From: an uncultured Phaeodactylibacter sp.
Lineage (GTDB): Bacteria > Bacteroidota > Bacteroidia > Chitinophagales > Saprospiraceae
Length of the DNA: 64,000 bases
Reading direction: 5' to 3'
Assembly: GCA_913057245.1 (NCBI GenBank)
Contig: CAJXNH010000020.1
Span: forward strand, 1-64,000
Each line of letters starts with the position of its first letter. Position 1 is the stretch's first letter. Positions 4,068-61,960 of the stretch are shown here, one piece after another. The position numbers and the translations under genes were made by a program. Under the pieces are notes generated by a model. The model ran no database searches. It saw nothing but the letters and a program-made list of their open reading frames with translations, and was not told the origin of the DNA.

Positions 4068-4301
4068 CTTAGCAGGATAAGACAATTACCGTTATCGTTT
4101 TTCCCGGAAATTGCTTTCAAAAAAGATGAAGCAGGTCTGGATGATACTAATCTTGCTCTGTGGAGCAGGTCTCGCCTGTGCACAACCTCTTGCTGTGGCG
4201 CATGCTCACTCATTTTTACCGGATACCATCCAAATCAAAGACACCTGGTGGGGTGGGCAGCGGTATCAGTTGGAAGGGGATTACCTCAGCCTACGGTAAG
4301 G

Positions 4302-6863
4302 TCACTGCACGATGAGCGGCATGACATACACGTTTTCCCTACTCAACACCTTAATATAGTAAGTGCCCCCAGGCCATCCTTGGAGCGAAATACATCCTGG
4401 TACTTGCCGGAAGGCACCCGCTGCTACTACTTGCCCGGTCGCATTGAAGCACTGCCAGGGGAGGGAGAGCGGCAATTCCGGGCTCGCCTGTAGGCAGGTT
4501 TGGGTAGAAGCAGGGTTGGGTGATAGCCAGATTTGTGGTTGCCTTGCCTCGTTTGCTGTGGAAGAGGGGTGTAGGAAGAGGGTTTCCGTTACCGCCCGGG
4601 AGCAGTTGGGGTTGGAGGCATTGAGCGTAACCTCGAAGGTGCCGGGCGCAGGGAAGGTGTGTACCGGATTGGTTACTGTGCTTGTTTCCCCATCCCCAAA
4701 ATTCCAGGAGAAGAAATCAGCATCCGTTGATAAATTAGTGAAAGTGGCGGTCAGCTCATTCGTTTCGTAGGTAAAGGCGGCGGTTGGTCGGGTGTAAATC
4801 GTGACTTGGTCTTGCACCGTAATCTGTTGGGGCGCAAAGGCACTGAACAGGGTAAGGCTAACATCATAAGTGCCCGGTGTTTCATAGGTAATCGTGGGAT
4901 TGGGCTGCGTGGACGAGGCAGGCGTGCCTCCCGGAAAGGCCCAAAGCAGGCTGTCAAAGTTGCCGGTAGACTGATTGACAAAGCCGATGCTCCGGGGGGC
5001 ACAGCCGCTGCTGCTGCCGCTCACGCCAAAGTCCGGCACGGGCGCGCTGCCCACAGTAATCGTTTGCTCAGCAGTAGCAGAACCGCAGTCGTTGGTGACG
5101 GTAAAAGTAACGGTGTAAATCCCTGGGGTGGTGTAAGTGTGAGTGGGGCTGGCAGAGGCGGAGGTGTTGCCGTCCCCAAAGTCCCAGTTGTAGGTTGTTG
5201 CATCCATGGTGGCCGGAGAAAAGGTAGCAGTCAGCCCATTCACGTCCGTAGTAAAGTCAGGTAGGGGTGGCACCCCGCTGATCACTTCAATCACACTGCT
5301 GTAAACCGGTGGGAAGCAGCTGGATATTGCCGAGAGGCGGAAGCTCAAGCCAGCGGCAGCAGCCGGGTTGTTGAGGAGCAGGTTGGGGGTGTTGACACCA
5401 TCATAGGCGGCATTATCCGGTACGGGCATAAAACCGTTGCCGTTGTCGAATTCCCAGATCAGGGTATTGAAGTTTCCATTGGGCAGTGTGCTTAGGGTAA
5501 GGGTTTCGGCACAAGCGGACAACGTATCCTGATCGGTGGCCACCACAGGCGGCTGTGGGATTGGCAGTGTGCTCAACGGGAAAGTCAACGGCTGCTCCAG
5601 CAAGCCATTGGTACCGGAAGTCGCTCCGTTTGGTGATTCCGGGCATTCGGAGGAATTGAGGGAGAGGCCTGGCACTCCTCCATTGAGCAGGATATCAGTG
5701 TCAAAGCCTCCGGGGGCGCTGATGTAGCCGCCGCTGCCACCCCCACCCGGGCCGAAGCACTGATCCTGATTGTTGTTGTTGGCGCTACCGCCGTTGCCGC
5801 CCATTGCAGAAAAGGTAATCGGGCCGGTGATGTTGTTAGCATTGATCAGGATCATGCCGCCTGCACCGCCCCCGCCGGCACCATCGCCTCCGGCGTTTTG
5901 GGCATGCATCCCATTCGCTACGATGGCCCCGCTATTGCTTATAATTTGGTCCGCTTGCAGTAAAACGATACCTCCGCCATTGCCGCCATCTGTAGCTACG
6001 TTGTTGTTGCCATGGCCAGCTCCGCCGCCGCCGCCCAGGAAAAGCCGTTCATTGTTGGGCAAAGGCCAGCCTGCGGCACCTTCCCCAAACCCTTTGCAGC
6101 CCAGGAAGTCGGGATTGTCATTTTCACCGCCCCGGCCTCCGGCAGTAAGCAGTGCACCACCGCCCCCGCCGGCATTATGGTCGTTACCGCCTCCGCCCCC
6201 GTTGGCTGCCGCGCCTCTGCCCCGGGGCCAGGCCATGGGTACGCCGCCTATGCCTTCCCCCTTGAGCCCGCCGCGAATGCTGTTGGCATCAAAGCGGTAA
6301 TCCTCATAATTGATCAGCCAGGTACAGCCGCCATCGTAGTCCAGAGCAGCACTCCCACCCCGGAATCCTTTCCCCGTAGCAGTAAGGTGCCCATTTAGCG
6401 TAAGCGTACCTGCCCGGAAGGCCAGTATGCCACCGGTTTGCCCGTCCCAGGCTTGTGCGGTAACCGAATCGGTGACGACCGCTTGTTCGTAATAGGGGAT
6501 ACTTACGGCCTGTATGTGGCCGTCAGTATTATAGGTGTGCAACAAAGATTGGGTGAGCAACAGGTCGTTGCCCTGAACCTCCTGAATGACAGCCTGCTCC
6601 CAGACACCCGCTGTCCCCAGCTCCGCAACGGACCCAAACTGAGAATTGTTGGGTACAGAGAGGACTGCGCCCTGCATTTGAGCGATTAAGAGGGTGTCGC
6701 CTTGCTGAAAATTAGCAGCATTGCCCACGGTCAGGCGGGCGGTACAGGTGTCAATAGCGGATACCGGGCTGTAGTGGTTGATGATACCGGTAAGCGTATC
6801 GGTCTGCGCAAATAAATTTGATAGGAGAAATAGGGAAAGCGCCAGGCAGGTTAACGTCTTCAT
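4302..6863 (-). CDS. T9SS-secreted protein with PKD domains and a long Gly/Asn-rich region
   Basis: 853 aa with a signal peptide (MKTLTCLALSLFLLSNLFAQ). The central low-complexity GGGGG/NGG tracts may be beta-helix-like. PKD-like repeats contain WDFGDGNTSASASPTHTYTTPGIYTVTFTVTNDCG and WNFGDGETSTVTNPVHTFPAPGTFEVT. The C-terminal T9SS CTD reads ...QIWLSPNPAS...GGTYYIKVLSRENVYVMPLIVQ. Confidence 0.8.
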   Translation of the reverse strand: MKTLTCLALSLFLLSNLFAQTDTLTGIINHYSPVSAIDTCTARLTVGNAANFQQGDTLLIAQMQGAVLSVPNNSQFGSVAELGTAGVWEQAVIQEVQGNDLLLTQSLLHTYNTDGHIQAVSIPYYEQAVVTDSVTAQAWDGQTGGILAFRAGTLTLNGHLTATGKGFRGGSAALDYDGGCTWLINYEDYRFDANSIRGGLKGEGIGGVPMAWPRGRGAAANGGGGGNDHNAGGGGGALLTAGGRGGENDNPDFLGCKGFGEGAAGWPLPNNERLFLGGGGGAGHGNNNVATDGGNGGGIVLLQADQIISNSGAIVANGMHAQNAGGDGAGGGGAGGMILINANNITGPITFSAMGGNGGSANNNNQDQCFGPGGGGSGGYISAPGGFDTDILLNGGVPGLSLNSSECPESPNGATSGTNGLLEQPLTFPLSTLPIPQPPVVATDQDTLSACAETLTLSTLPNGNFNTLIWEFDNGNGFMPVPDNAAYDGVNTPNLLLNNPAAAAGLSFRLSAISSCFPPVYSSVIEVISGVPPLPDFTTDVNGLTATFSPATMDATTYNWDFGDGNTSASASPTHTYTTPGIYTVTFTVTNDCGSATAEQTITVGSAPVPDFGVSGSSSGCAPRSIGFVNQSTGNFDSLLWAFPGGTPASSTQPNPTITYETPGTYDVSLTLFSAFAPQQITVQDQVTIYTRPTAAFTYETNELTATFTNLSTDADFFSWNFGDGETSTVTNPVHTFPAPGTFEVTLNASNPNCSRAVTETLFLHPSSTANEARQPQIWLSPNPASTQTCLQASPELPLSLPWQCFNATGQVVAAGAFRQVPGCISLQGWPGGTYYIKVLSRENVYVMPLIVQ

Positions 6864-31651: not shown

Positions 31652-33580
31652 ATGACAGTTGAGATTAGAAGAAAAGAAATAGGCAACCTTCTACTTGAGA
31701 ACATCCCGGATATCCCTGTCCTGCTGAAAGACCGGCTTCAGTTGTATCAGCAGACACGCGAGGCGGCTTTGGCCGATTGGCTGCCCGATGGCAGTGGGTT
31801 ACTGATCTCAACCCGGTTTGGAGAAGCTGCACAGATTCACGAAGTGGTCCGCCCCGGGCACTTCCGTAAACAACTGACCTTTTTTGACGAGCCCGTTTAT
31901 ATTGCCCGCACCTGCCCCGATGCTGACCGTCAGGGTTTTTTGTTTGCGCGGGATACGGGTGGCAATGAGGCTTATCAGTTGTACTTCTATGATTTGCGAA
32001 AGCAGGAATACCGAATGCTGACGGATGGGGAATCCAAGCACAGCAGTGGCGTATGGAACCGGGAGGGCAGCGCTTTTATTTACAGCAGCACCAAGCGCAA
32101 CGGTATTGATCAGGATTTGTACCTCTACGACCTGGCTGGTGGTACAGGTGAACGACTGGTCTTTACCGGCAAGGGCTATTGGTACCCGGTCGCCTGGGCA
32201 TCAGGCGGGCGGTATGTGACCGTCATTAACTACCGGTCGATCAATGAAAGCCACCTGCATATCCTGGATGTGGAGACCGGGGCATTGGAAACCATTCAGG
32301 CGGATCCGAATATTGCCTGTCGCTCCGGCAGCTGGTCCGCCGATGGCCGCCGGATTTTCTACACGTCTGATGCGGATAGCGAATGGCGCGGGCTGATGGT
32401 TTACGACCTGGATACACAATCGAAGCAAAAGATTACTCAGGGGCTGGACTGGGAAGTGGAAGGCTTGCAGCTTTCCGCGGATGGCACACAGCTGGCCTTT
32501 GTCATCAATAAGAACGGCATTTCCGAATTGTACCTTTACGATACGGCGCAGGCGTGCTACGAGCGGGTTGAAGTTCTGCCGGAAGGCGTCATTGCCGATA
32601 TGCGCTGGCATCCCAAAACGCTGCGCCTTGCCCTGACCATCAATACGCCACAGGCGCCGGCCGATGCCTATGTGCTGGATGTTGAAACGATGGACCTGCA
32701 GCAGTGGACCTTTTCAGAAGTGGGTGGATTAGACCGCAAAGGGTTTGTCAAGCCCAGGCTCATTCATTATCCGACTTTTGATCAGGTAGGGGGTAAAGAC
32801 CGGGAGATTCCTGCCTTTTACTACCGGCCGGAGCACAAAAACGCGCCCATGCCGGTGCTGATTTACATCCACGGCGGCCCGGAGAGTCAGTTTCGGCCCG
32901 GCTTTTCACCGGCTTTTCAGTACTACCTTAAAGAACTTGGGGTGGCTGTGCTCGCTCCCAATGTGCGGGGCTCTTCGGGCTATGGGAAGCACTACCTCAA
33001 GCTGGATAATGGCTTTAAGCGGGAGGATTCTGTGCGGGACATCGGGGCGCTGCTGGACTGGATTGAACAGCAGCCTGAGCTGGACAGCCATCGTGTGGCG
33101 GTTATGGGCGGTTCCTACGGTGGCTACATGGTGCTGGCGAGCATGTCGCACTACAACGACCGTCTTTGTTGCGGGATTGATATCGTGGGGATCAGCAACT
33201 TCATTACCTTCCTGAAGAATACCAAGTCTTACCGCCGCGATCTGCGCCGGGTGGAGTACGGGGATGAGCGTGATCCGGCTATGCGCCGGCATCTGGAGCA
33301 GATTTCTCCGACGACTAATGCTCATAAGATTACCAAGCCGATGCTCATCGTGCAGGGGCAGAATGACCCCCGGGTGCCGGCCAGTGAGGCGGAGCAAATG
33401 CTGCGGGCAATCCGTAAGAATGGGGGAGAGGCCTGGTACCTGCTGGCTAAGGATGAGGGGCATGGCTTCCGGAAAAAGTCGAACCGTGATTTTTACAATC
33501 AGGCGGTGATCTTGTTTCTGCAGACTTATCTGATGCAGCCGCTGGAGGTGGGGGTGCCTGAGGCGTTGGTGACGACTTAG
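31652..33580 (+). CDS. S9 family serine peptidase (prolyl oligopeptidase/dipeptidyl-peptidase-like) with N-terminal beta-propeller
   Basis: 642 aa. The C-terminal alpha/beta-hydrolase carries the nucleophile elbow GGSYGGYM, with Asp/His downstream (...QGQNDPRVP...DEGHGF). Confidence 0.8.
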   Translation: MTVEIRRKEIGNLLLENIPDIPVLLKDRLQLYQQTREAALADWLPDGSGLLISTRFGEAAQIHEVVRPGHFRKQLTFFDEPVYIARTCPDADRQGFLFARDTGGNEAYQLYFYDLRKQEYRMLTDGESKHSSGVWNREGSAFIYSSTKRNGIDQDLYLYDLAGGTGERLVFTGKGYWYPVAWASGGRYVTVINYRSINESHLHILDVETGALETIQADPNIACRSGSWSADGRRIFYTSDADSEWRGLMVYDLDTQSKQKITQGLDWEVEGLQLSADGTQLAFVINKNGISELYLYDTAQACYERVEVLPEGVIADMRWHPKTLRLALTINTPQAPADAYVLDVETMDLQQWTFSEVGGLDRKGFVKPRLIHYPTFDQVGGKDREIPAFYYRPEHKNAPMPVLIYIHGGPESQFRPGFSPAFQYYLKELGVAVLAPNVRGSSGYGKHYLKLDNGFKREDSVRDIGALLDWIEQQPELDSHRVAVMGGSYGGYMVLASMSHYNDRLCCGIDIVGISNFITFLKNTKSYRRDLRRVEYGDERDPAMRRHLEQISPTTNAHKITKPMLIVQGQNDPRVPASEAEQMLRAIRKNGGEAWYLLAKDEGHGFRKKSNRDFYNQAVILFLQTYLMQPLEVGVPEALVTT

Positions 33581-33629
33581 GGCTTTTATTGTTCCTGTTT
33601 CAGGGGTTTTTCCTTAAGGTTTTATTGAA

Positions 33630-33960
33630 TAGGGTGCGACTTCTACGAAGTCGTTGGGCTTTGTTGGTGTGGGGGTGAGTAGGATGCGACTTCTACGAAG
33701 TCGTTGGGTCTTCTTTTTGTGGAGGTTGAGTAAGGTGCGACTTCTGCGAAGTCGGTGGGCTTTGTTGTTGCCTGGGTTAGAAGGGTGCGACTTCTACGAA
33801 GTCGGTGGGCTGAGCTGATGTCGGGTATATAAAGATGTGCCTTCTCCGAAGTCTGACCGCCCTTTCCATATAGCTTTGTGACTCTATCTGGCTTCGCCGT
33901 GCAGACAGGTTCTGCGAATTCGGTGGGTTGCGATGTTGCCGGGGATACAAAATTACAGAT
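33630..33960. repeat. tandem array of ~50-bp direct repeats (4 good and 2 degenerate copies), each containing the palindrome GCGACTTC-TACG-GAAGTCG
   Basis: Units start near 33632, 33683, 33735 and 33783, with decayed copies at about 33836 and 33900. Both the palindromic core (rGGTGCGACTTCTACGAAGTCGkTGGGCT) and the T-rich/G-rich 'spacer' (ttgttggtgtgggggtgagta vs ttctttttgtggaggttgagta vs ttgttgttgcctgggttagaa) are conserved between units. Confidence 0.8.
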
Positions 33961-34216
33961 AAGTTATTGAATGATTGTGTATAACAAATTGCACAAAAAC
34001 AGAAAGTGACCACCGGTTATCAAAGTGCGATAGCTGCTGGGGTATAGCTTCCCGCTCTGCTCCAGCTTATCCACGAGATGCATAGGCAGGGCGCTCAACT
34101 CTGCACATCAGAAGCTTGTTAGGTGTTCTGTACTCAGGTGGCCGAATTCTTAGATATGCGAGTCACGGTATTACCAATTTACCCGAACCAGGTCAAAACC
34201 ACAAATCAAAGCTCGA

Positions 34217-35545
34217 ATGGCGATAGAAAAATCAACACCGGCTTCCGGCCTTTCCAGGAGAGGGGCTCCCCTGGCGGCCTCCGCTGCCCGGGTGGACATG
34301 GACCTCTTCTTTGAAGCTGCTCAAAATCTGTACGATCCGGAGGAGAATCCCGAAGGGTACTTCACCCTGAATGTGGCGGAGAATGCCCTGATGATCCCGA
34401 TGATGAAGGCGCGCATAGATGAAATTTTGCAGCAGGGCGATGTTCCCGAATGGGCTTTCCAGTATACCGATCCGAATGGGCACCCGGAGGTCCGGGAGAC
34501 CGTAGCTGCATTTATGGAGCAATACCTGTGCCAATGTCCCATTGCGCCTGATTCCATCGCCTTTTCTGCCGGTGCTGCAGCGACCATAGAGGTAAGTACA
34601 TTTATGCTGGCAGACGAAGGGGATGTGGTGGTGATTCCGGCTCCCGCTTACCCCATGTACACCAATGATGTGGGCTTGAAAAGCGGATTGCAGCGCTATG
34701 ATTTGCAAACGCATTACCACCCTGCTGATCATGGTGATATTTCCCCATTAACCACTGCACATCTGGATGCTGCCTGGGCGGACATCAGCGGGCAGGGTCA
34801 GAGGTTCAAAATCCTGTTGCTGACCTCACCGGATAACCCCACCGGCTGCATGTACTCGGAACAACAGCTGAGGGAGATTGCCGAGTGGTGCATGGCGCAT
34901 GAGGTGCACCTGGTTGTCAGTGAAATTTATGGTTTGTCGTTGGTGAATATCGAGGACGATGACATCCGGGCAGATTATACGCCGGCAACGGTGCCCCAAT
35001 CTTTCGCACAGCTCATGGCGGAGCTTCAAAGCGATTACCTGCACCTCTGGTATGCCCTGTCCAAGGATTTTGCCATGTCCGGATTCCGGTTTGGTATCGT
35101 ACATTCCTTGAATGAAAGCTTCCTAAAGGGTTTTGGGAATGTCAATATCCCGCAGATGGTCTCCAACCTTGCGCAGTGGGTAATCGGGGAGCTGATGAAA
35201 GATCACGCCTTCCTGGAGCGCTACATCGTAACCAACAAGGCCCGCCTTACCGGGAGCTACAAAGCAGTCGTCAAGGCCCTTCGGGAGTTGGAAGTGCCCT
35301 ACGTCCCCAGCCGCGGTAGCCTGTTTGTGTGGGCCGATTTTTCCAAATACCTAAAAGAGGATAGCGAAAAGGGGCAGGAAGACCTTTGGATGGACATTTA
35401 CCACAGTACCGGCATATTGCTGACGCCCGGTGCCGGATTCCAGCATAAGAAGTATGGGGTGTTTAGGATAGTGTATACTACATTGCCTTTGAGCCATTTG
35501 GAGGTGGCGCTGGAGCGGTTGAAGGGCTATTTTAGGAACGGCTAA
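34217..35545 (+). CDS. PLP-dependent aminotransferase, class I/II (ACC-synthase-like subfamily)
   Basis: TLNVAENALM..., the PLP-lysine region LWYALSKDFAMSGFRFGIV (SxxKxxxxxGxRxG), and a fold-type I pattern throughout. The start may be at MDLFFEAAQ (34298). Confidence 0.75.
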   Translation: MAIEKSTPASGLSRRGAPLAASAARVDMDLFFEAAQNLYDPEENPEGYFTLNVAENALMIPMMKARIDEILQQGDVPEWAFQYTDPNGHPEVRETVAAFMEQYLCQCPIAPDSIAFSAGAAATIEVSTFMLADEGDVVVIPAPAYPMYTNDVGLKSGLQRYDLQTHYHPADHGDISPLTTAHLDAAWADISGQGQRFKILLLTSPDNPTGCMYSEQQLREIAEWCMAHEVHLVVSEIYGLSLVNIEDDDIRADYTPATVPQSFAQLMAELQSDYLHLWYALSKDFAMSGFRFGIVHSLNESFLKGFGNVNIPQMVSNLAQWVIGELMKDHAFLERYIVTNKARLTGSYKAVVKALRELEVPYVPSRGSLFVWADFSKYLKEDSEKGQEDLWMDIYHSTGILLTPGAGFQHKKYGVFRIVYTTLPLSHLEVALERLKGYFRNG

Positions 35546-42334: not shown

Positions 42335-45300
42335 AAGCCCGTCTGCGCAGAAGGTGGTGCTTTCTGAAGACGCAAAAGCGCCACCGGAGGCCAGAGTGTT
42401 ACCCAGTTCATCGCTCAGGCTGTAGGAGCCACTGCCGTAAGCACAGCAGATACCATCACCGGCAGAATCAAAGATGGTAAAGGTATAATCGCCACCCGAG
42501 AGGCTGAACGTTTCCGTAACGGTAGAGCCATTGCGCTGTGAACCATAGGAGCCGCCCGAAGCTACGGTAGTACCACCATCAGTCACGGTCCAGGTGGTTT
42601 CACTGGGATAGTTGTCGAGTACGATAGTCAGGATGAAGTTGTTGCCGTTACTGCAGGGGGCGCACCCCATGATGCAGGGGGCGCACCCCATGATGCTATT
42701 GCCACCAATCTCCTCAGGCAGTAGGGTGCCCTGCCCATTGGTGTCTAGTACAACTGTCACATCCTGGCAGATAGCAGATGGCGGTGCACAGTATTCGCTT
42801 ACTCTAAAATCATCGAGCAGAATACCACGTCCGCGTTGTGGCGTTTCATTACTTGTCGTGTCCAATACCAGGTCCAAGCTGTCCTGATCGTTGGCGTCGG
42901 TTACGGTAAAAGCAAACTGAAGGTAATCAGATAAGCTTGGCAGCAGAATCTCTTCGGTTGTCCACGTGGACGCCAAATTCTGGTTAGGAGAATATTCCGC
43001 AAGTTGTGTCCACTCTCCACCTTCTGCTGTTCTGTACAACAAGTTTAGCGTTGGCTGATAATTCATAATACTGTCCAAAAAAGTTGGGTCAAAATTAAGG
43101 CTCCACTTGAAAAGCGAGCCTTCAAACCCAGGGTCAAGATCTTTAACTGATAAGGTCCACTCTCCGTTAAGAGGGCAGCCTTCTAGGCTGGAGAAGTCTC
43201 CTTCGGGCTTATAACTGCCCTCAGGGAAGTAAGAAGCAGAAACTTCAGAGGTCAGGCCGTCAATTAAGCTGGGAACAGTAGTGTAAACGTGAGACGGGGT
43301 AAAGCTCAAGTGTTCATCCCTGAGCGTGCCAAAATCGGTACTCTCCATGCTGAAGCAGTACTCATAAGGGGTGCCAGGCGTCAGGTCGTTACGACCTATA
43401 AAATCCGTTCGAATAAATGGCTCGCCTAAATGTTCCAAGATATGGGGAGAAGAAAAGTGTTTAATTATTTTAGCAGATTGCCCATTAGGGCAGGATAGCT
43501 CAATATCCAGGTTGTCATAACGTTCGTGCTCCAGGCTAATGCAAACACTGGAAAGCATGGACTCAGTGAGTGTGGCATCCCTCGGGAAGCCACTGAGCTT
43601 AATGGTAGAAGGGCTCGTAAGTGGAAAAAAAGGTATGATTCCATCCACCCGGCCAATCGCTAAGTTCTCGTTAGCTACAGCTGTTTGTGGCGATGGACCT
43701 ACCGACGATATAAGGCCTTCTAAAATGTTATAGGCAAAAGAAACCACAGGAACCTCAGAAAACGAACTGACATCAAATAATGGCGAAATAAGTGTGTCTT
43801 TCCTGACTGTTGGACTGATAAATGCCGCCATGTTATCACCATTAAGGGGTTGGTTAGCCAATCCGGTAGTATCGAATACCTTTTCGGGGAACTGCCAGGC
43901 TGAGGGGCTGCTGGATTGAAGTGTCCAACATTCTGGTTTGACTCCAGAACCTTCGAAACCTGTAAAATATGGACTCCTAAGTGTAAGTGTCCAAGGAGAA
44001 CCACATGAATAGGTTAGTCTAACAGTGGAGGACGGGCGAGAGAGGTGCCCATCGCAAATGGCGATAACCTCAAACCTGTAATTGCCGTCTCGGTCGAAAA
44101 AAAATAACTCGGCGTTAAATTGATTAGTAGAAATAAAGCTATACCAGTGAGGCGATCCCTCCAGAGCATACCGGACGAGAAAAGAGTCCGCATCTGATGA
44201 ATCCCAGCTTAGGACAGCAACATCGACGTCGGTTGACCATGGAAAAAGACTAGCTTGAACATTCTGAGGTGGTAAACAATCCTCTTCTTCTTGAATATGA
44301 ATATTGTCAATCCTGGCAAAAGCATTGTGATACCCTTCAAATCGGACCACGTAACTTTCGGCGTTGGTGTTAAGTTTTGGCAGCGGTATTCTTGCTGTAG
44401 CCCAGCCATTTGTGGGGGTTTTAAAATCCACCAGGACTTTTTCACTCAAAGGCGACGATGAACCAAACGATTGATAGGCCACCCTAAAAGCAGGAGCAGG
44501 CTTGAAAGCGATACTGCTGGTACAGAAGCTGGTACTTTCGCTGAAGTCGAAGCTGCCGCCCGATGCGATCACTGCTCCGGTGCCATCTGTAAGGGTATAG
44601 GAACCATTGCCAGCTAAACAGCAAATACCGTCCCCGTAGCTGTCATTAATAGTGAAGGTATAGTCTCCTGGCTCCAGGCTGATGTTCTCTGTAATAGTGC
44701 CTGCTGTGTACAAGCTGAAATTCCTATCGTAGGGGCCACCGGAAGCTACTATAGCACCGTCAGCATCAGAGACCGTCCACGAAGTTTCATCAGGAAAGGT
44801 GTCGACATCGATGGTTAGGGTCAGGTTGAGTCCGTAACAAGAGGAGCAGGGTGCACAGCTGGACCCACCGCAGTCTATGCCACTCTCATCACCGTTTTGG
44901 ATGCCATCATAGCAGGATGGCGAAACGGTCGTGCTGCAGGTGGTGGGTGCTTCCTCAATCCAGTAATCAAAAGTTAACAGGTGGTTTTCCGCTTCGTTCC
45001 AAAGGATAGATGGTGATTCTAAACGGGCTGTGTGCTGTGTGTCCGAAAAGCAATCATAATTCCCGGTGAAAGTTGCTCTGCGCCCCCCTGTAACCTCTTC
45101 AAATAATAACGGGAATCCATCTTGTATCCAGCATCCTTCAGGAGCTGAAGCATTTTCAAAGCCCTGGAATACAGGAAAAGGTGAGTATTCACCACATAAA
45201 GTTCTAAATTCTAAGGGCTCTGAAGGATTGCTGAAGATATCGGCGGATCCACAAGACTCAGTGATGACGTAAAAATCGTAAGGGGTATCTGATTCTAATC

Positions 45301-50552: not shown

Positions 50553-53411
50553 TTACCGCACTACCACAAAGCGGCGGACGATATGCTCCTGATTAGCGCT
50601 CAGGTGCAGGAAGTAAACGCCGGGGGCGAGTGTGGACGCGTCCATCTCATGTACGGAGGTGCCCACTTGTCCCAGCCATTGCTGCTGACTGATCACCCGT
50701 CCGTCTGTGCCGGTCACCATCACTTGTACCGGGCCTGCTTCAGGCAGGGTGAAGGAAAGCTTGAGGTCGCCGTTGGTCGGGTTCGGGAAGAGGTTGATGT
50801 CAGCAATTTGCGGTGCAGCTTGTGCCTGTGGGCCACGGAAGGTGCTTTGCTCAACCGATGGTTTCACATAGTCAGCGGTAAGTACAGGATTAGCCGTACG
50901 GGCACCGCTTTGGCAACCGCTGATCACGATGTCATCCAGGTATACCCAATCGGAATTACCGGAGGCGTCACAACGGAAACGCAGGCGGGTGTTAGTGGTG
51001 AACGGACCCGGGATAACCACAGCATCGAAGTAGCGCTGATTGTTTTGGAATTCATCGCCCTGATTCCACTCTTCGACGGTGGTGTAGGTGCTGCCGCCAT
51101 TGGTAGATATCTGTAGCCAGAAGTCTTCGTTAGCGTTGTCCATACTGACCGGGAAGTAGCTGAAATCGACTGTGAGTTCGCTGTAAGCGGTCAGATCCAG
51201 GTTATCTGTGGTGAGCACGGAGGTACTGGAGTTGTCCCTCAGTGCCAGGCTAACAAACCCGGTATTGGGGTTGCTGTTGCTGCGGTAGCAATCGCTGCCG
51301 CCATCATTCCAGATACCAAAACCTGACTCAAAGCCTTCGCTGTTGAGCGTGAGGTAGGTGCAACCGCCACCGCCTCCGCATGGTGCACAGCTGGAACCGC
51401 CGCAGTCCACGCCAGTCTCATCACCGTTCTGGATGCCATCATTGCAGGTTGGGGCCGTACCGCCATCGCCTGCGCAGAAGTTGGTGCTTTCTGAAGACGC
51501 AAATGCACCACCGGATGCCAGGGTGTTGCCCAGTTCATCGCTCAGGCTGTAAGAACCAGTGCCATAAGCACAGCAAATACCATCCCCAAAGGAATCGAAA
51601 ATAGTGAATACATAGTCACCACCCGAGAGGCTAAAGGTTTCAGTAACGTTAGAGCCATTGGGCTGTGTGCCGTAAGGGCCACCCGAAGCTACGGTAGTGC
51701 CGCCATCGGTTACGGTCCATGTGGTCTCACCGGGATAGTTGTCGAGTACGATGGTCAGAGTAAAGTTATTGCCATTGCTGCAGGAGGTATTACAAGGCGC
51801 GCAGTCCGGGCCACCGCAATCCACGCCAGTTTCACTGCCGTTTTGAATACCATCGTTGCAAGTCGGGCAGGCGGCACAGTCCGGGCCACCGCAATCCACA
51901 CCGGTTTCGCTACCGTTCTGAATGCCGTCATTACAGGTTGGGCAAGCCGGGCAGTTGGTGCCGCCGCAGTCTACGCCGGTCTCGTCACCGTTCTGGATGC
52001 CATCGTTACAAGTTGGAGCAGCGCCGACCGTACAGAAGCTGGCGCTTTCGCTGGAGCCGAAGCTGCCGCCCGATGCAATCACCGCACCGGTACCATCGGT
52101 AAGGCTATAGGAACCATTGCCATACGCACAGCAAATGCCGTCCCCGAAGCTGTCATTAATGGTAAAGGTATAGTCTCCTGTACCCAGGCTGATGTTCTCG
52201 GTAACGGCAGAGCCGTTGGCTTGACCGCCGTAGGTGCCACCTGAAGCTACCGTAGCACCACCGGCATCGGTGACGGTCCAGGAAGTTTCCGCAGGATAGT
52301 TATCGAGCGTGATGGTCAGGGTCAGGTTGGGGTCATTACAGGGACAGGGAGCGCAGCTGGAACCGCCGCAGTCCACGCCGGTCTCGTCACCGTTTTGGAT
52401 GCCATCATTGCAGGTAGGCGTTACGGGGGTGCCGCAGGCGGTAGAGTTCAGCAGGCTGGCACGGGCGCCACCGGGCTCAAACAAAGCCCGCATACGGGCA
52501 GTCTGGCCTTGCGTGAAGAGGTTCATACAGCCATCATCGGAGTAGTCCATGTAGTTTTGGAACATGTCAGGAAGATCACCGGTACCTCCATTACAGGAGT
52601 CGCTACCGGGGAAATTACAAGGTGAACCCGTGTAGTTTGGCCCGCCAGCCCGTGGCGTATCACTGACGAAGTCGTCGGCGTTGCAGTTGCCATCCCCCCA
52701 GATGTGGCGAAGATTGAGGTAGTGCCCCACCTCGTGCGTACCGGTCCGGCCCTTATCGAAAGGAGCGGTAGCGGTGCCAATATCCCCAAAGTATTGGTAA
52801 TCAACAACCACTCCATCGGTACTGGCAGGGCCACCGGGGAACTGTGCGTAACCCAGAATGCCGCCGCTGATATCACAAACCCAAAAGTTCATGTAGTCAC
52901 TTGCCGGCCAGGCGTCTTTCCCACCACTGGAGTTAAACTTCACCTCATCATTAGTGCCGAAAGCAGTGACACTGGTTGGGGTGCGCGTAATGCCATCGGT
53001 TGGGTTTCCCTGCGGGTCAACGGTAGCCAGGCAAAACTCAATTTCTACATCGGCTGCGACGCCCTGAAATACAGAAGGCGTGTTGACCGCATCCGCATTC
53101 AGGCGGCGGAAGTCTTCATTCAGAATATCAATCTGGCTTTGCACCTGAGCCGCACTGATATTCTCCGTGGCGTTATTGTACACCACATGCACCACCACGG
53201 GGATGGTAATGGTGCCTGTCACCGAGCGTGAAGCACTTTCCAGGACGCGGGCAGTGTGCCTCTCGATTTCTTTTTGCCGTTGTTCGCGTTCCGGGTGCAT
53301 TTCATGCTGATGCTCCAGGTAGTCCATGCTACCACAATTGCGCTGCGCCCATAGGTTACCCGTCAGGCCTAACAGCAAGAGTATCAAAAGGGTGTTCAAG
53401 TTTTTTTTCAT
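50553..53411 (-). CDS. T9SS-secreted M43-family (pappalysin/ulilysin-like metzincin) zinc metalloprotease with Cys-rich tandem motifs and beta-sandwich modules
   Basis: 952 aa with a signal peptide plus propeptide. The catalytic motif [11 protein letters not shown] has the spacing of the M43 HEXXHXXGXXH motif (ulilysin HEVGHWLGLYH). It carries five tandem Cys-rich motifs TCNDGIQNG(D/S)[11 protein letters not shown] and two DNYP.ET.WT...GDGICCAYG modules (about 95% identical to those in the 2118-aa protein). A C-terminal beta-sandwich and T9SS CTD read ...[16 protein letters not shown]...[22 protein letters not shown]. Confidence 0.85.
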
Positions 53412-59986: not shown

Positions 59987-61960
59987 ATGCGACACTTCCT
60001 ACTGCTGTTTTTCATCCTTCCCCTGGGGCTTCCCGCACAGTCCACGTTTCAGCATCAGGCGCCGAGCCTTCAGATTGGGCTGGGCGGGCTGAGTTTTGGA
60101 AAGGGTACCCTGGACGCTGAGGTGATCGCCTCGGTCATTGCCGATAAGCAGGAGGAGGTGCGTGTCCGGCTGATCAAAAATATGTTCCTGGGGCAGATTG
60201 AGGAGGCCGGCGGGCTGAATTACATCTACCTCGATAACATCATCAATACGGTACTGGAAGAGCGCAATGCCGAGACCCGCACCCGCAATATTTATGAGAA
60301 TACGGTCAACCTGGTTTTTGTCTATGCGCTTTCCGACTACTACTTTGCCCTTTGCGATGCTGAGTTGGTGGCTTTGGCCGAAGCCTACGGGGGGCAAAAG
60401 ACCGGTGCGGTCATGGCCGGTCAGACCTTTGCCCGTTTTCAGCTGGCGGCCTCCGGGGAGCGGCCCGGGCAGGGGCTGGTAGCCAGGTCTTCCGCTATTA
60501 CATTTTCGGAGGATAGCCTGACTACAGCGTTTAAGGCACTGTTGCTGGATATCGTCAGCGAGGCCGTGCGCAATGAACCGACTTTACAGGAGTTGGGGCT
60601 GCTCCGCACTATGTACCGCAATTCCGGCAGTGAAGCGCTGAATACTTACCTCACCCTGACGGATACGGTCAGGAAGCCTCTGGCAGATGCCGTGTATAAT
60701 CGTGTGCAGAGCCGCTTATCCAATCTGATTGACTACATCGGCCTGATCAATTACCTTTTCCGTACGACCAACTTTAAGGTAAACGGGGCTTCCATGGGGC
60801 TGGATTTGGAAAGCGCTGCCGGGCTGCGCAACAATGATGCTATTGGCGCTCAGCTCGATAGTGTGCGGCAGTACATCCGGCGGGCGATAGGCGAACAAGG
60901 CAGGGCGGAGCTGTCGGCAGAGGAACTACAGGTCTTGCTGTCCTTTCTGGGGCAAATGCAACAGCTCGATTTGGATAACATCAGCCCCGGTGCGCTGTCT
61001 GATCTCATCTTTGAGCTTTATAACGACGTGCTGCCGGTCCTGGAGCGCCTCGCCAAAAACTCACAGTACTTCATTGACACTTACTTCGAGCTGAACACCC
61101 TGTTGCAGTCGCTGGTCAAAACCGCCTTTGAGCAGGGCTTCCCTTTTGATTACGAAGCACTGCGCGACCATCTGCTGTTCCGGCTCATGGCTAAGTTGTA
61201 CGAATTTGATCAGGCGGCCACCTACGATGACTACCTGAATGCCCTGGCCGGGCTGAGCGATATCTTTCCCAATCAGGATACCAAAGCGGCGCTCAACAAA
61301 ATTATCAGCCTGCTGCGCAGTTATACCGAGATCATCGAAGGCTTTCAGGAAAATGAAGCCCTGGATTTTGATGTGGAAAGCTTTCTGGTTTCTTTGCAAA
61401 ACATCAATTATGACCGGTGGCGGCCACTGTCTTTTATCTTCAACGTGGGGGTCAACAATGCCCACTTCCCGGACGGGCTGTCCCTGGAGAATGGAGAAAG
61501 CCTGCGCAATTACACCTTCGCTGGCGAGAAGATCGGACTCAAGGTCAATTTGCTGGACTGGGCTTACATCAACAGCTTCGGGCGGCAGGAGACTTTCCGG
61601 TACTGGGGTAAATCCTACGTGCGCCTGGAACCGGCCACGGAACCTACGGTGAGCAACCTGCACCTGCTCTTTTACGGCACTGGCCTGCTGTACAATCTGG
61701 CCAATACCGGCACCACTCCGGATTTCAACCGCCCCATGATTGCCGGCGGCTTGGGGCTTACCTTTTTCAATCAGCTGGATTTGAATGCTTCTGTAGGCGT
61801 ACCTGTCAATGCGACTGCTGCGCAGTCCACCCCCCTTTTTCTTAATGTGGGCTTTGATATCCGCTTCGATGAGTATCTGCAGGCGTTGAATGAACGGCGT
61901 CGGCAGCGCCGGTATGAGCGCCGGGTGGATGCCCTGTTGCTCGCCCCTCCGGAGGATTGA
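59987..61960 (+). CDS. secreted hypothetical protein (helical N-terminal region, beta-rich C-terminal region)
   Basis: 657 aa with a signal peptide (MRHFLLLFFILPLGLPAQS). The C-terminal 200 aa have alternating hydrophobic patterns compatible with an OM beta-barrel. No family recognised. Confidence 0.55.
   Translation: MRHFLLLFFILPLGLPAQSTFQHQAPSLQIGLGGLSFGKGTLDAEVIASVIADKQEEVRVRLIKNMFLGQIEEAGGLNYIYLDNIINTVLEERNAETRTRNIYENTVNLVFVYALSDYYFALCDAELVALAEAYGGQKTGAVMAGQTFARFQLAASGERPGQGLVARSSAITFSEDSLTTAFKALLLDIVSEAVRNEPTLQELGLLRTMYRNSGSEALNTYLTLTDTVRKPLADAVYNRVQSRLSNLIDYIGLINYLFRTTNFKVNGASMGLDLESAAGLRNNDAIGAQLDSVRQYIRRAIGEQGRAELSAEELQVLLSFLGQMQQLDLDNISPGALSDLIFELYNDVLPVLERLAKNSQYFIDTYFELNTLLQSLVKTAFEQGFPFDYEALRDHLLFRLMAKLYEFDQAATYDDYLNALAGLSDIFPNQDTKAALNKIISLLRSYTEIIEGFQENEALDFDVESFLVSLQNINYDRWRPLSFIFNVGVNNAHFPDGLSLENGESLRNYTFAGEKIGLKVNLLDWAYINSFGRQETFRYWGKSYVRLEPATEPTVSNLHLLFYGTGLLYNLANTGTTPDFNRPMIAGGLGLTFFNQLDLNASVGVPVNATAAQSTPLFLNVGFDIRFDEYLQALNERRRQRRYERRVDALLLAPPED

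Follow-up and report, generated by a model that had tools for sequence, protein, structure and literature searches.

A tandem hairpin array between peptidase and aminotransferase genes of an uncultured marine Bacteroidota lineage, probably one locus of a dispersed, modular family of intergenic palindromic repeats

RESULTS

Structure of the array

The sequence examined in this study is a 64,000-nucleotide (nt) stretch of contig CAJXNH010000020.1 (GenBank assembly GCA_913057245.1; positions 1 to 64,000), hereafter called the window. In this stretch, a 636-bp intergenic region (33581-34216), which contains only short, mechanically called open reading frames (ORFs), separates a gene for an S9 peptidase from a gene for an aminotransferase and carries a head-to-tail array of hairpin units at 33623-33952 that is probably one locus of a dispersed, modular family of intergenic palindromic repeats in an uncultured marine Bacteroidota lineage. 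An earlier note, which was made from the sequence alone, had described a tandem array with conserved segments between its palindromes, as distinct from a CRISPR, in an ORF-free intergenic region of ~640 bp between these two genes. The Pfam matches of both flanking proteins (Table 1), the length of the region, the 50-nt period, and the homology of the spacers agree with that description.

Six units make up the array: four intact ones of 50 nt, a decayed one, and a split one at its end; the four conserved units counted in the note are thus present as such, whereas its two "decayed" units are one decayed unit and one whose hairpin (33877-33922) is interrupted by a 22-nt insert. Tandem Repeats Finder reported 33626-33811 with a period of 50, 3.7 copies, 81% matches, and a score of 244, and overlapping rows of its output reach 33853. 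The 17-mer CGACTTCTACGAAGTCG is found at 33637, 33687, 33738 (one mismatch), and 33788. When up to three mismatches are allowed, this 17-mer has nine matches in the window against 0.10 expected, a number reached in none of 100 shuffled sequences, and the sole match outside the array (16071, three mismatches) is chance-like. In the core hairpin of the unit, CGACTTC-TAC-GAAGTCG, a stem of 7 bp (CGACTTC/GAAGTCG) closes a 3-nt loop (TAC); an eighth stem pair, G·T, is possible in units 1 and 2 only. The 8-bp stem and 4-nt TACG loop of the earlier note are therefore a misparse, and the string GCGACTTC-TACG-GAAGTCG does not occur in the sequence. The unit hairpin folds as DNA at -6.0 kcal/mol (z = -3.2). 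The covariance model R1, which was built on an alignment of 44 units (A2), scores units 1 to 4 at 47.5 to 51.6 bits and unit 5 at 22.1 bits and has no match in the rest of the 64 kb. A solitary hairpin at 61812-61828 (TG-CGACTGC-TGC-GCAGTCC) resembles the core with an altered stem; it is not significant in the unit model and is probably a chance occurrence.

The period of the array (50/51/50) is not a multiple of 3, which, together with the presence of short mechanical ORFs only, rules out a coding function. An independent assembly from ENA (L001; loci outside the window carry numbers with the prefix L) is 100% identical over the entire intergenic region, and the array is thus not a one-off assembly artifact; the loss of the repeats on reassembly, which the earlier note had considered, did not occur.

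Dispersal of the repeat unit

When JGI metagenome contigs were scanned with the exact 19-mer TGCGACTTCTACGAAGTCG, 44 loci were obtained, ~26 of which are intergenic head-to-tail arrays of 2 to at least 5 units with 48-52-nt phasing and a common spacer consensus. The remaining ~18 matches, mostly in high-GC coding DNA, are due to chance and were excluded. The genuine arrays come from the samples PR_CR_10_Liq_1, PR_CR_10_Liq_2, and PR_CR_10_Liq_3 and from the marine assemblies UENT, UENU, UENV, UENW, and OBAL, and after orthologs were merged they amount to ~15 arrays in 13-14 distinct intergenic regions, on contigs that derive from one population or from close relatives of it, all family copies being intergenic. 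The PR_CR_10_Liq samples hold 14 array-bearing contigs, and the marine assembly UENT01 alone has seven array contigs of similar coverage. Several contigs start or stop within an array, as is expected for a repeat that breaks assemblies. Model R1 recovers the family arrays at 30-54 bits and, within the window, the known array only. The unit is thus dispersed rather than unique, as in the ordinary repetitive extragenic palindrome (REP) family that the earlier note had set against its own proposal, at ~15 loci and not the hundreds that it had named; its candidate reading of a REP-like element or bacterial interspersed mosaic element (BIME) gains support from the membership of the unit in a dispersed intergenic family.

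Searches of phage, plasmid, and viral-contig sequences with the array or the core gave no match, and a literature search did not find the core sequence in any paper. With Rfam 15, no family reached its gathering score across the 64 kb, and only chance-level matches (E values of 0.53 and 6.8) were obtained for 33500-34300. A scan of GTDB with an exact 23-nt pattern, in which each species is represented by one genome, returned a single match, the Bacteroidales metagenome-assembled genome contig JAIPBS010000006.1 (L002). At 455-725, this contig carries a small cluster of 2-4 diverged hairpins in both orientations (ATGCGACTTCTACGAAGTCG, ATGTGACCTCTACAAGGTCG, GATCCCTATGGGATC, and GGACTTCTCCGAAGTCC) with compensatory stem changes. 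The cluster belongs to another order of Bacteroidota; it is possibly a remote branch of the hairpin family and was kept out of the conclusions.

Among the excluded matches, the 19-mer occurs by chance inside a high-GC coding sequence, ..(M)R.YCDFYEV.., apparently of one conserved protein family, in L008, L011-L013, L015, L023, L024, L029, L031, L034, L035, L043, and L047; these matches are unrelated to the repeat. L025 (1-3467) was rejected as an unrelated 87-nt satellite that spans the whole 3.5-kb contig, one copy of which contains the 19-mer by chance.

Gene context and orientation

The neighbors of the arrays are mutually unrelated and include genes for a TonB-dependent receptor, an OmpR-type response regulator, a UPF0014 permease, an S8 subtilase with a type IX secretion system (T9SS) tail, and an SMC-like protein (read from its translation). 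In eight arrays, including that of the window, the head lies 12-65 nt past the stop codon of a co-directional gene; five others are antisense to both neighbors, with the head toward the start of a divergent gene, and L046 has a pair of arrays oriented toward each other, flanked by convergent genes. These unrelated neighbors and mixed orientations exclude a gene-specific operator array and disfavor an obligatory co-transcriptional role. The orientation of the arrays relative to local GC skew, which was used as a proxy for replication direction, is divided 8 versus 8 and gives no signal. Inverted arrangements of units were seen in L038, L046, and L002 only. The clusters of L038 (2452-2640 and 11570-11920) are of mixed orientation and BIME-like, with the stems CGACCTC/GAGGTCG and TGACCTC-GCCA-GAGGTCA, the latter having a 4-nt loop.

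Conservation of the hairpin and modular organization of the elements

The family unit of ~50 nt consists of the hairpin, TG-CGACTTC-TAC-GAAGTCG, followed by a G/T-rich, unstructured spacer of ~31 nt with the loose consensus G.CTGCC..GTGTTGCC.GGGTTAGTAAsr-TG-hairpin. In alignment A2, columns 13-31, which correspond to the hairpin and the preceding TG, are at least 90% conserved (the T at position -2 is invariant by construction, as it served to orient the units), and the mean column identity overall is 68%. Stems with compensatory double changes were observed, namely, GGACTTC/GAAGTCC, TGACTTC/GAAGTCA, TAACTTC/GAAGTTA, and CGACCTC/GAGGTCG. The stem covariation involves three pairs, with 9 cells altered on both sides, a cell count that none of 500 shuffles reached. 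The wobbles in the stem (8 cells) are all G·U or U·G on the plus strand, with no A·C, and this strand specificity indicates that selection acts on the structure of a single strand, either RNA or single-stranded DNA (ssDNA).

The 7-bp hairpins are the only structures that RNAalifold predicts from the unit alignment; neither a conserved spacer structure nor an extended stem was found. The small structured RNA array that the earlier note had offered as a candidate is a possible reading; the 7-bp hairpin alone is conserved as a structure, and the spacer lacks a conserved fold. The fold of the whole array on the plus strand is not better than that of shuffled sequences (z = -0.85). On the complementary strand, the hairpins are prominent (z = -2.55) among spacers that are rich in C and A and unstructured.

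The arrays have polarity and a modular build. They typically open with a perfect ..AACA-TGCGAC.. unit, subsequent units frequently read ..AAGG-TGTGAC.., and the last units at unrelated loci have TTCTCCGAAGTCT in common, a subtype represented by unit 5 of the window and found in L037 and L044 too. A split terminal unit, GAC-TCTAC-[CCTGgCT-N9-AGaCAGG]-TTCTAC-GAAGTC, ends the arrays of the window, L003, L030, L010, L018, L019, and L020, and it contains a direct duplication of 5-6 nt (TTCTAC or TTCTGC) on either side of a nested hairpin of ~22 nt. The recurrence of these subtypes across loci indicates that what spread to new sites was multi-unit elements and not single hairpins. From the duplication in L020, the extent of one element is ~172 bp; it begins ~12 nt before the first hairpin and stops where the terminal hairpin ends. 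In L026, a two-unit array is followed at 4220-4494 by a tandem repeat with a period of 137 nt (2 copies, 86% matches). Both copies open with the hairpin's right half (TTCTACGAAGTCAG), which looks like the duplication of a long insert along with half a hairpin.

The orthologous site in relatives

Genes near the array in the window encode Por_Secre_tail (T9SS) and CarboxypepD_reg/TonB-receptor domains, and the named proteins closest to the aminotransferase (60-67% identity) come from Chitinophagales, Saprospiraceae, and Lewinella; both observations place the host in the Bacteroidota. The host lineage is uncultured, marine, and, judged by these sequences, Chitinophagales/Saprospiraceae-like. Two window proteins are identically encoded on JGI contigs of PR_CR_10_Liq_2 and PR_CR_10_Liq_3, which indicates that the population represented by the window is present in these samples.

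The S9 peptidase gene is syntenic in L001, L003, and L004. In L003, whose aminotransferase is 96% identical to that of the window, the peptidase gene is followed by a four-unit array with a split terminal unit, a GNAT gene, and the aminotransferase gene, and L030, which is the L003 locus from another sample, has two units and the terminal unit. In L004 (87% identical) there is no array, model R1 finds nothing, and the GNAT gene begins 10 nt past the stop codon of the peptidase gene. The window carries 4+1+1 units without the GNAT gene, and homology to L003 and L004 resumes at ~34096, in the ~120-bp region upstream of the aminotransferase gene, which is conserved irrespective of the array. At a second locus, the copy number is 2, 2 plus the terminal unit, or at least 3 units. 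The window and L003 have the same hairpin sequences, whereas their spacers are at most 68% alike despite flanks of 93-95% identity; spacers inside a single array are 72-97% alike (62-97% in the comparison with CRISPR given below). The comparison of relatives indicates that units are locally homogenized or duplicated and that the hairpin alone is constant; by the same sequence evidence, the array is dispensable and its copy number is variable.

Structural variation and a second repeat at the array ends

L020 is the L018/L019 locus with an additional segment of 2.77 kb that has a GC content of 36.7%, compared with ~50% in the flanks. This island (region 1697-4800 of L020, compared with L019 8562-8735) lies upstream of the gene for the SMC-like protein, contains four ORFs, and is bracketed by two near-identical 172-bp copies of the array. 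None of its ORFs has a Pfam match, and hence no integrase or recombinase was seen among them.

Beside the array tail of the window, a second dispersed repeat, element 2 (33975-34095, minus strand), has taken the place of the GNAT gene. The GNAT (Acetyltransf_3) gene of the relatives encodes 174-177 amino acids (L003 3019-3552; L004 9217-9741) and was compared with 33953-34095 of the window, which lacks it. The exact 39-mer of element 2 recurs on four other contigs of the lineage, L037 (974-1012), L040 (12655-12693), L045 (4-42), and L049 (5244-5282). Its invariant core of ~45 nt, TGGATAAGCTGGAGCAGAGCGGGAAGCTnTACCCCAGCAG, can be folded as GCTGG-AGC-AGAGC-GGGAA-GCTCT-ACC-CCAGC and is flanked by the inverted repeats ATAACAAATTGCAC and GTGCAATTTGTTAT. 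Element 2 has no Rfam match at permissive E values, and it looks like a miniature inverted-repeat transposable element or a small RNA gene. The arrays thus coincide with recombination events, although so few cases (one or two) fall short of proving causation.

Other features of the window

The features of the locus are listed in Table 1. The number of terminator-like consensus matches is not above that of shuffled sequences (2 versus 1.4 expected), and the hairpin that precedes the array is a lead only. A scan for sigma-70 promoters found nothing, and the Bacteroidetes promoter motif TAnnTTTG was uninformative, with 39 sites in the window versus 33 expected; the site at 33871 in unit 5 has no -33 partner. 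Two further tandem repeats were noted elsewhere. One is a 75-nt repeat at 51795-52021 (3 copies, 78% matches) within a minus-strand ORF of 952 amino acids (50553-53411), and it presumably encodes a 25-residue protein repeat. The other is a perfect 21-nt tandem duplication at 42652-42696 (TGCAGGGGGCGCACCCCATGA, 2.1 copies) with a GC-rich palindrome.

Table 1. Features at the peptidase-aminotransferase locus (window coordinates)
Feature	Coordinates	Strand	Evidence
S9 prolyl-oligopeptidase-family peptidase, 642 amino acids, upstream flank	31652..33580	+	Pfam Peptidase_S9, E 7e-39
Terminator-like hairpin and T-run (GTTCCTGTTTCAGGGGT TTTTCCTTAA), between peptidase stop codon and array	33591..33617	+	Consensus scan
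Unit 1 (head), hairpin CGACTTC-TAC-GAAGTCG at 33637-33653	33623..33672	+	R1 47.5 bits, E 8e-12
Unit 2, hairpin at 33687-33703	33673..33723	+	R1 50.9 bits
Unit 3, hairpin at 33738-33754, loop TGC	33724..33773	+	R1 51.6 bits
Unit 4, hairpin at 33788-33804	33774..33823	+	R1 48.7 bits
Unit 5, decayed, remnant TGCCTTC-TCC-GAAGTCT at 33838-33854	33824..33873	+	R1 22.1 bits, E 3e-4
Split terminal unit, TGTGAC-TCTAT / insert CTGGCTTCGCCGTGCAGACAGG (33888-33909) / TTCTGC-GAATTCG	33874..33922	+	In-register comparison
Spacer-like tail GTGGGTTGCGATGTTGCCGGGGATACAAAA, fitting the family spacer consensus ..TGCC.GGGTTA..	33923..33952	+	Spacer alignment
Element 2, core GGATAAGCTGGAGCAGAGCGGGAAGCTATACCCCAGCAG, end resembling a terminal inverted repeat GTGCAATTTGTTATACAC	33975..34095	-	blastn of loci versus window, alignment A4
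Aminotransferase upstream region, probable promoter and 5' untranslated region, kept in relatives with or without array	34096..34216	+	L003/L004 homology resumes
Class I/II pyridoxal phosphate-dependent aminotransferase, 442 amino acids, downstream flank	34217..35545	+	Pfam Aminotran_1_2, E 3e-47

DISCUSSION

The family to which the array belongs is dispersed and extragenic, is independent of orientation and of its neighbors, and is polymorphic in presence and copy number, and its hairpin is selected in a strand-specific manner. We regard the repeats as repetitive DNA that is probably mobile, rather than as a switch dedicated to the neighboring genes. An element comprises a well-conserved head unit and a variable number of head-to-tail units, often ending with a degenerate unit and the split terminal unit. 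The hairpin may serve on one strand as a sequence-specific handle for a trans-acting protein that binds ssDNA or RNA, and such a protein could have spread multi-unit elements in a role modeled on that of the REP-associated tyrosine transposases (RAYTs) for REPs. Units would then be gained or lost locally through slippage or unequal recombination, and the resulting arrays could favor recombination. Between the peptidase and aminotransferase genes, a dedicated function of the array is improbable, and at most its hairpins possibly have a generic effect at the peptidase transcript's 3' end.

Several points weigh against this interpretation. No transposase or cognate gene was found in the window and the loci (~0.4 Mb), and a tblastn search with IS608 TnpA and Escherichia coli RAYT (Y1) sequences, which is a weak test, gave no hit (best E value, 1.6). 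Terminal inverted repeats (TIRs) beyond the palindromic hairpins are absent, as are target site duplications (TSDs) at the element ends that are set by the L020 duplication, and the conserved tag of the described REP superfamilies is missing. The family was counted on metagenome contigs; the 64-kb window holds a single array, and the other loci were found through the hairpin itself. The copy-number differences, such as that between L003 and L030, are to be read with the caveat that short-read assemblies can collapse near-identical units. Because the units were preselected at no more than one stem mismatch, the pairing of 98.7% is partly a product of construction and does not count as evidence, and the strand-specific wobbles would fit an RNA role just as well.

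Such a role is the first alternative. The hairpins could act in cis within mRNAs as stabilizers of 3' ends, exonuclease blocks, terminators, or attenuators, or the array could be an RNA with repeated protein-binding modules. We consider this unlikely as the principal explanation, and it could coexist with the repeat-family interpretation. The head lies shortly past a co-directional stop codon in 8 of 13 contexts, the window included, the eight wobbles are of the G·U type with no A·C on the plus strand, and the hairpins stand out on the complementary strand; moreover, REPs have been reported mostly downstream of coding regions, where they are plausibly transcribed (PMC3733652). However, the five arrays that are antisense to both neighbors do not fit an RNA role, the hairpins are not followed by a U-tract, and a separate terminator-like hairpin (Table 1) already precedes the array of the window. 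The plus-strand fold of the array is no better than that of shuffles, the spacer lacks conserved structure, no Rfam family applies, and the array is absent from the close relative L004.

It is rather improbable that the arrays are att-like hot spots of recombination or integration, or that an enzyme drives their polar growth from the head end, instead of their being passive repeats. The duplication of the 172-bp array around the low-GC island of L020, which is absent from L018 and L019, would be accounted for in this way, as would the replacement of the GNAT gene at the array tail of the window, the polarity from conserved heads to degenerate or split tails, and the direct duplication around the insert of the terminal unit. 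On the other hand, there is only one island case, with no integrase or recombinase on the island, and homologous recombination between any repeats gives the same picture; polarity is equally explained by selection on the first hairpin alone. A more specific proposal, to which we give little credence, is that the repeats are an undescribed hairpin element of Bacteroidota for which a dedicated, single-strand-specific enzyme adds head units or integrates at the loop, so that the arrays would be attachment or recombination sites for cassettes; the island of L020 and the gene replacement at the array tail of the window would then be examples.

An operator array for a dimeric DNA-binding regulator of the aminotransferase or peptidase gene, which the earlier note had offered as a candidate, is highly improbable. 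A perfect 7-3-7 palindrome does occur four times, approximately five helical turns apart, upstream of a gene. Nevertheless, the same arrays stand beside unrelated genes in both orientations, often behind stop codons, and the window array lies ~265-600 bp before the aminotransferase start, outside the ~120-bp conserved upstream region. The array is missing from the 87%-identical relative L004, a whole gene lies between the array and the aminotransferase gene in L003, and the compensatory stem changes indicate a folded single strand rather than a duplex operator. Finally, a CRISPR-like mini-array or an assembly artifact has a negligible probability: the hairpin repeats are regularly spaced with intervening segments of ~31 nt, but this explanation is refuted by the similarity of the spacers to one another (62-97% identity, with a shared family consensus) and by the independent assemblies (one identical, with orthologous arrays in two further samples), the repeat core is merely ~19 nt, and no Cas domains were found among the genes within ±10 kb.

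If the array is a locus of a dispersed repeat family, as we favor, the family is of use beyond this site. Small dispersed palindromic repeats are well cataloged in Proteobacteria and Firmicutes and hardly in Bacteroidota, for which this family, with a 19-nt core and a 50-nt unit model, is a readily searchable example. In metagenome assemblies of the lineage, it accounts for broken contigs and for polymorphisms in length, and its arrays mark sites of structural variation (island insertion and gene replacement) and could serve as a strain-typing marker of the variable-number tandem repeat (VNTR) kind. For the flanking genes, the result is a useful negative, in that the array is not a dedicated regulatory device. 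Should a cognate enzyme be found, the host-element relationship of the REP/RAYT type would be extended to another phylum, or a new one would be added there.

Among known systems, REPs and BIMEs are similar in that they are short, extragenic, dispersed stem-loops, often downstream of genes and in both orientations, with subfamilies that differ by complementary stem changes, with G·T pairs, and with tandem clusters that include flanking DNA. Tandem reiteration with flanking DNA and G·T stem pairs are documented for REP families, whose superfamilies typically have stems of 6-9 bp and loops of 2-3 nt and carry a GTAG or CGTC tag that is unpaired, lies 0-2 nt from the stem, and is kept in >90% of members (PMC3733652). 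Bacteroidota were listed with CGTC-type repeats only (Di Nocera et al. 2013, PMC3733652). Over 69 candidate units, ~10 of which were later judged spurious, positions -8 to -5 gave G in 32, T in 36, A in 54, and A in 48 or G in 16. The present family thus has a weak GTAA/GTAG-like tetramer (~46-78% per position) at 4 nt from the stem, with no CGTC tag and no CCA tail. In addition, a head-to-tail arrangement predominates here, whereas head-to-tail dimers are rare in the described families, and inverted dimers (head-to-head or tail-to-tail) are not predominant here; the fixed ~50-nt phasing with a conserved spacer and the split terminal unit are further differences. Because the defining tag is missing and the organization is head to tail, membership in the GTAG/CGTC superfamilies fails, although the element behaves like a REP cluster.

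The BOX elements of Streptococcus pneumoniae are composites of the form boxA-(boxB)n-boxC, with variable tandem modules and lengths that vary between strains (Croucher et al. 2011, PMC3049150). The present elements resemble them in being composites scattered over intergenic regions, with end modules of distinct type, with a varying number of tandem internal modules of ~45-50 nt, with lengths that vary among strains, with clustering with other repeats (here, element 2), and with stem-loops that are predicted if they are transcribed. However, there is no sequence similarity, the phylum is another one, and neither TIRs nor TSDs were detected here; moreover, every module of the present family has the same small hairpin, whereas BOX folds as one large structure. 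In their dispersal and copy-number behavior, the arrays are also similar to the mycobacterial interspersed repetitive unit (MIRU)-type VNTRs. These are head-to-tail intergenic repeats of 40-100 bp at tens of loci with strain-variable copy number; they are not hairpin based and usually lie in frame, with overlapping stop and start codons, inside operons. In contrast, the period here is not divisible by 3, and 12-130 nt separate the arrays from gene ends. CRISPR arrays, too, have regularly spaced hairpin direct repeats, with better units at one end and degenerate ones at the other, but the spacers here are homologous within and between loci, the repeat is too short, and there are many small arrays (2-6 units). 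The repeats are real, yet for the most part they are of an ordinary kind, since dispersed intergenic palindromic repeats of small size are a known class; it is in its unusually regular and polar organization that the present family stands out.

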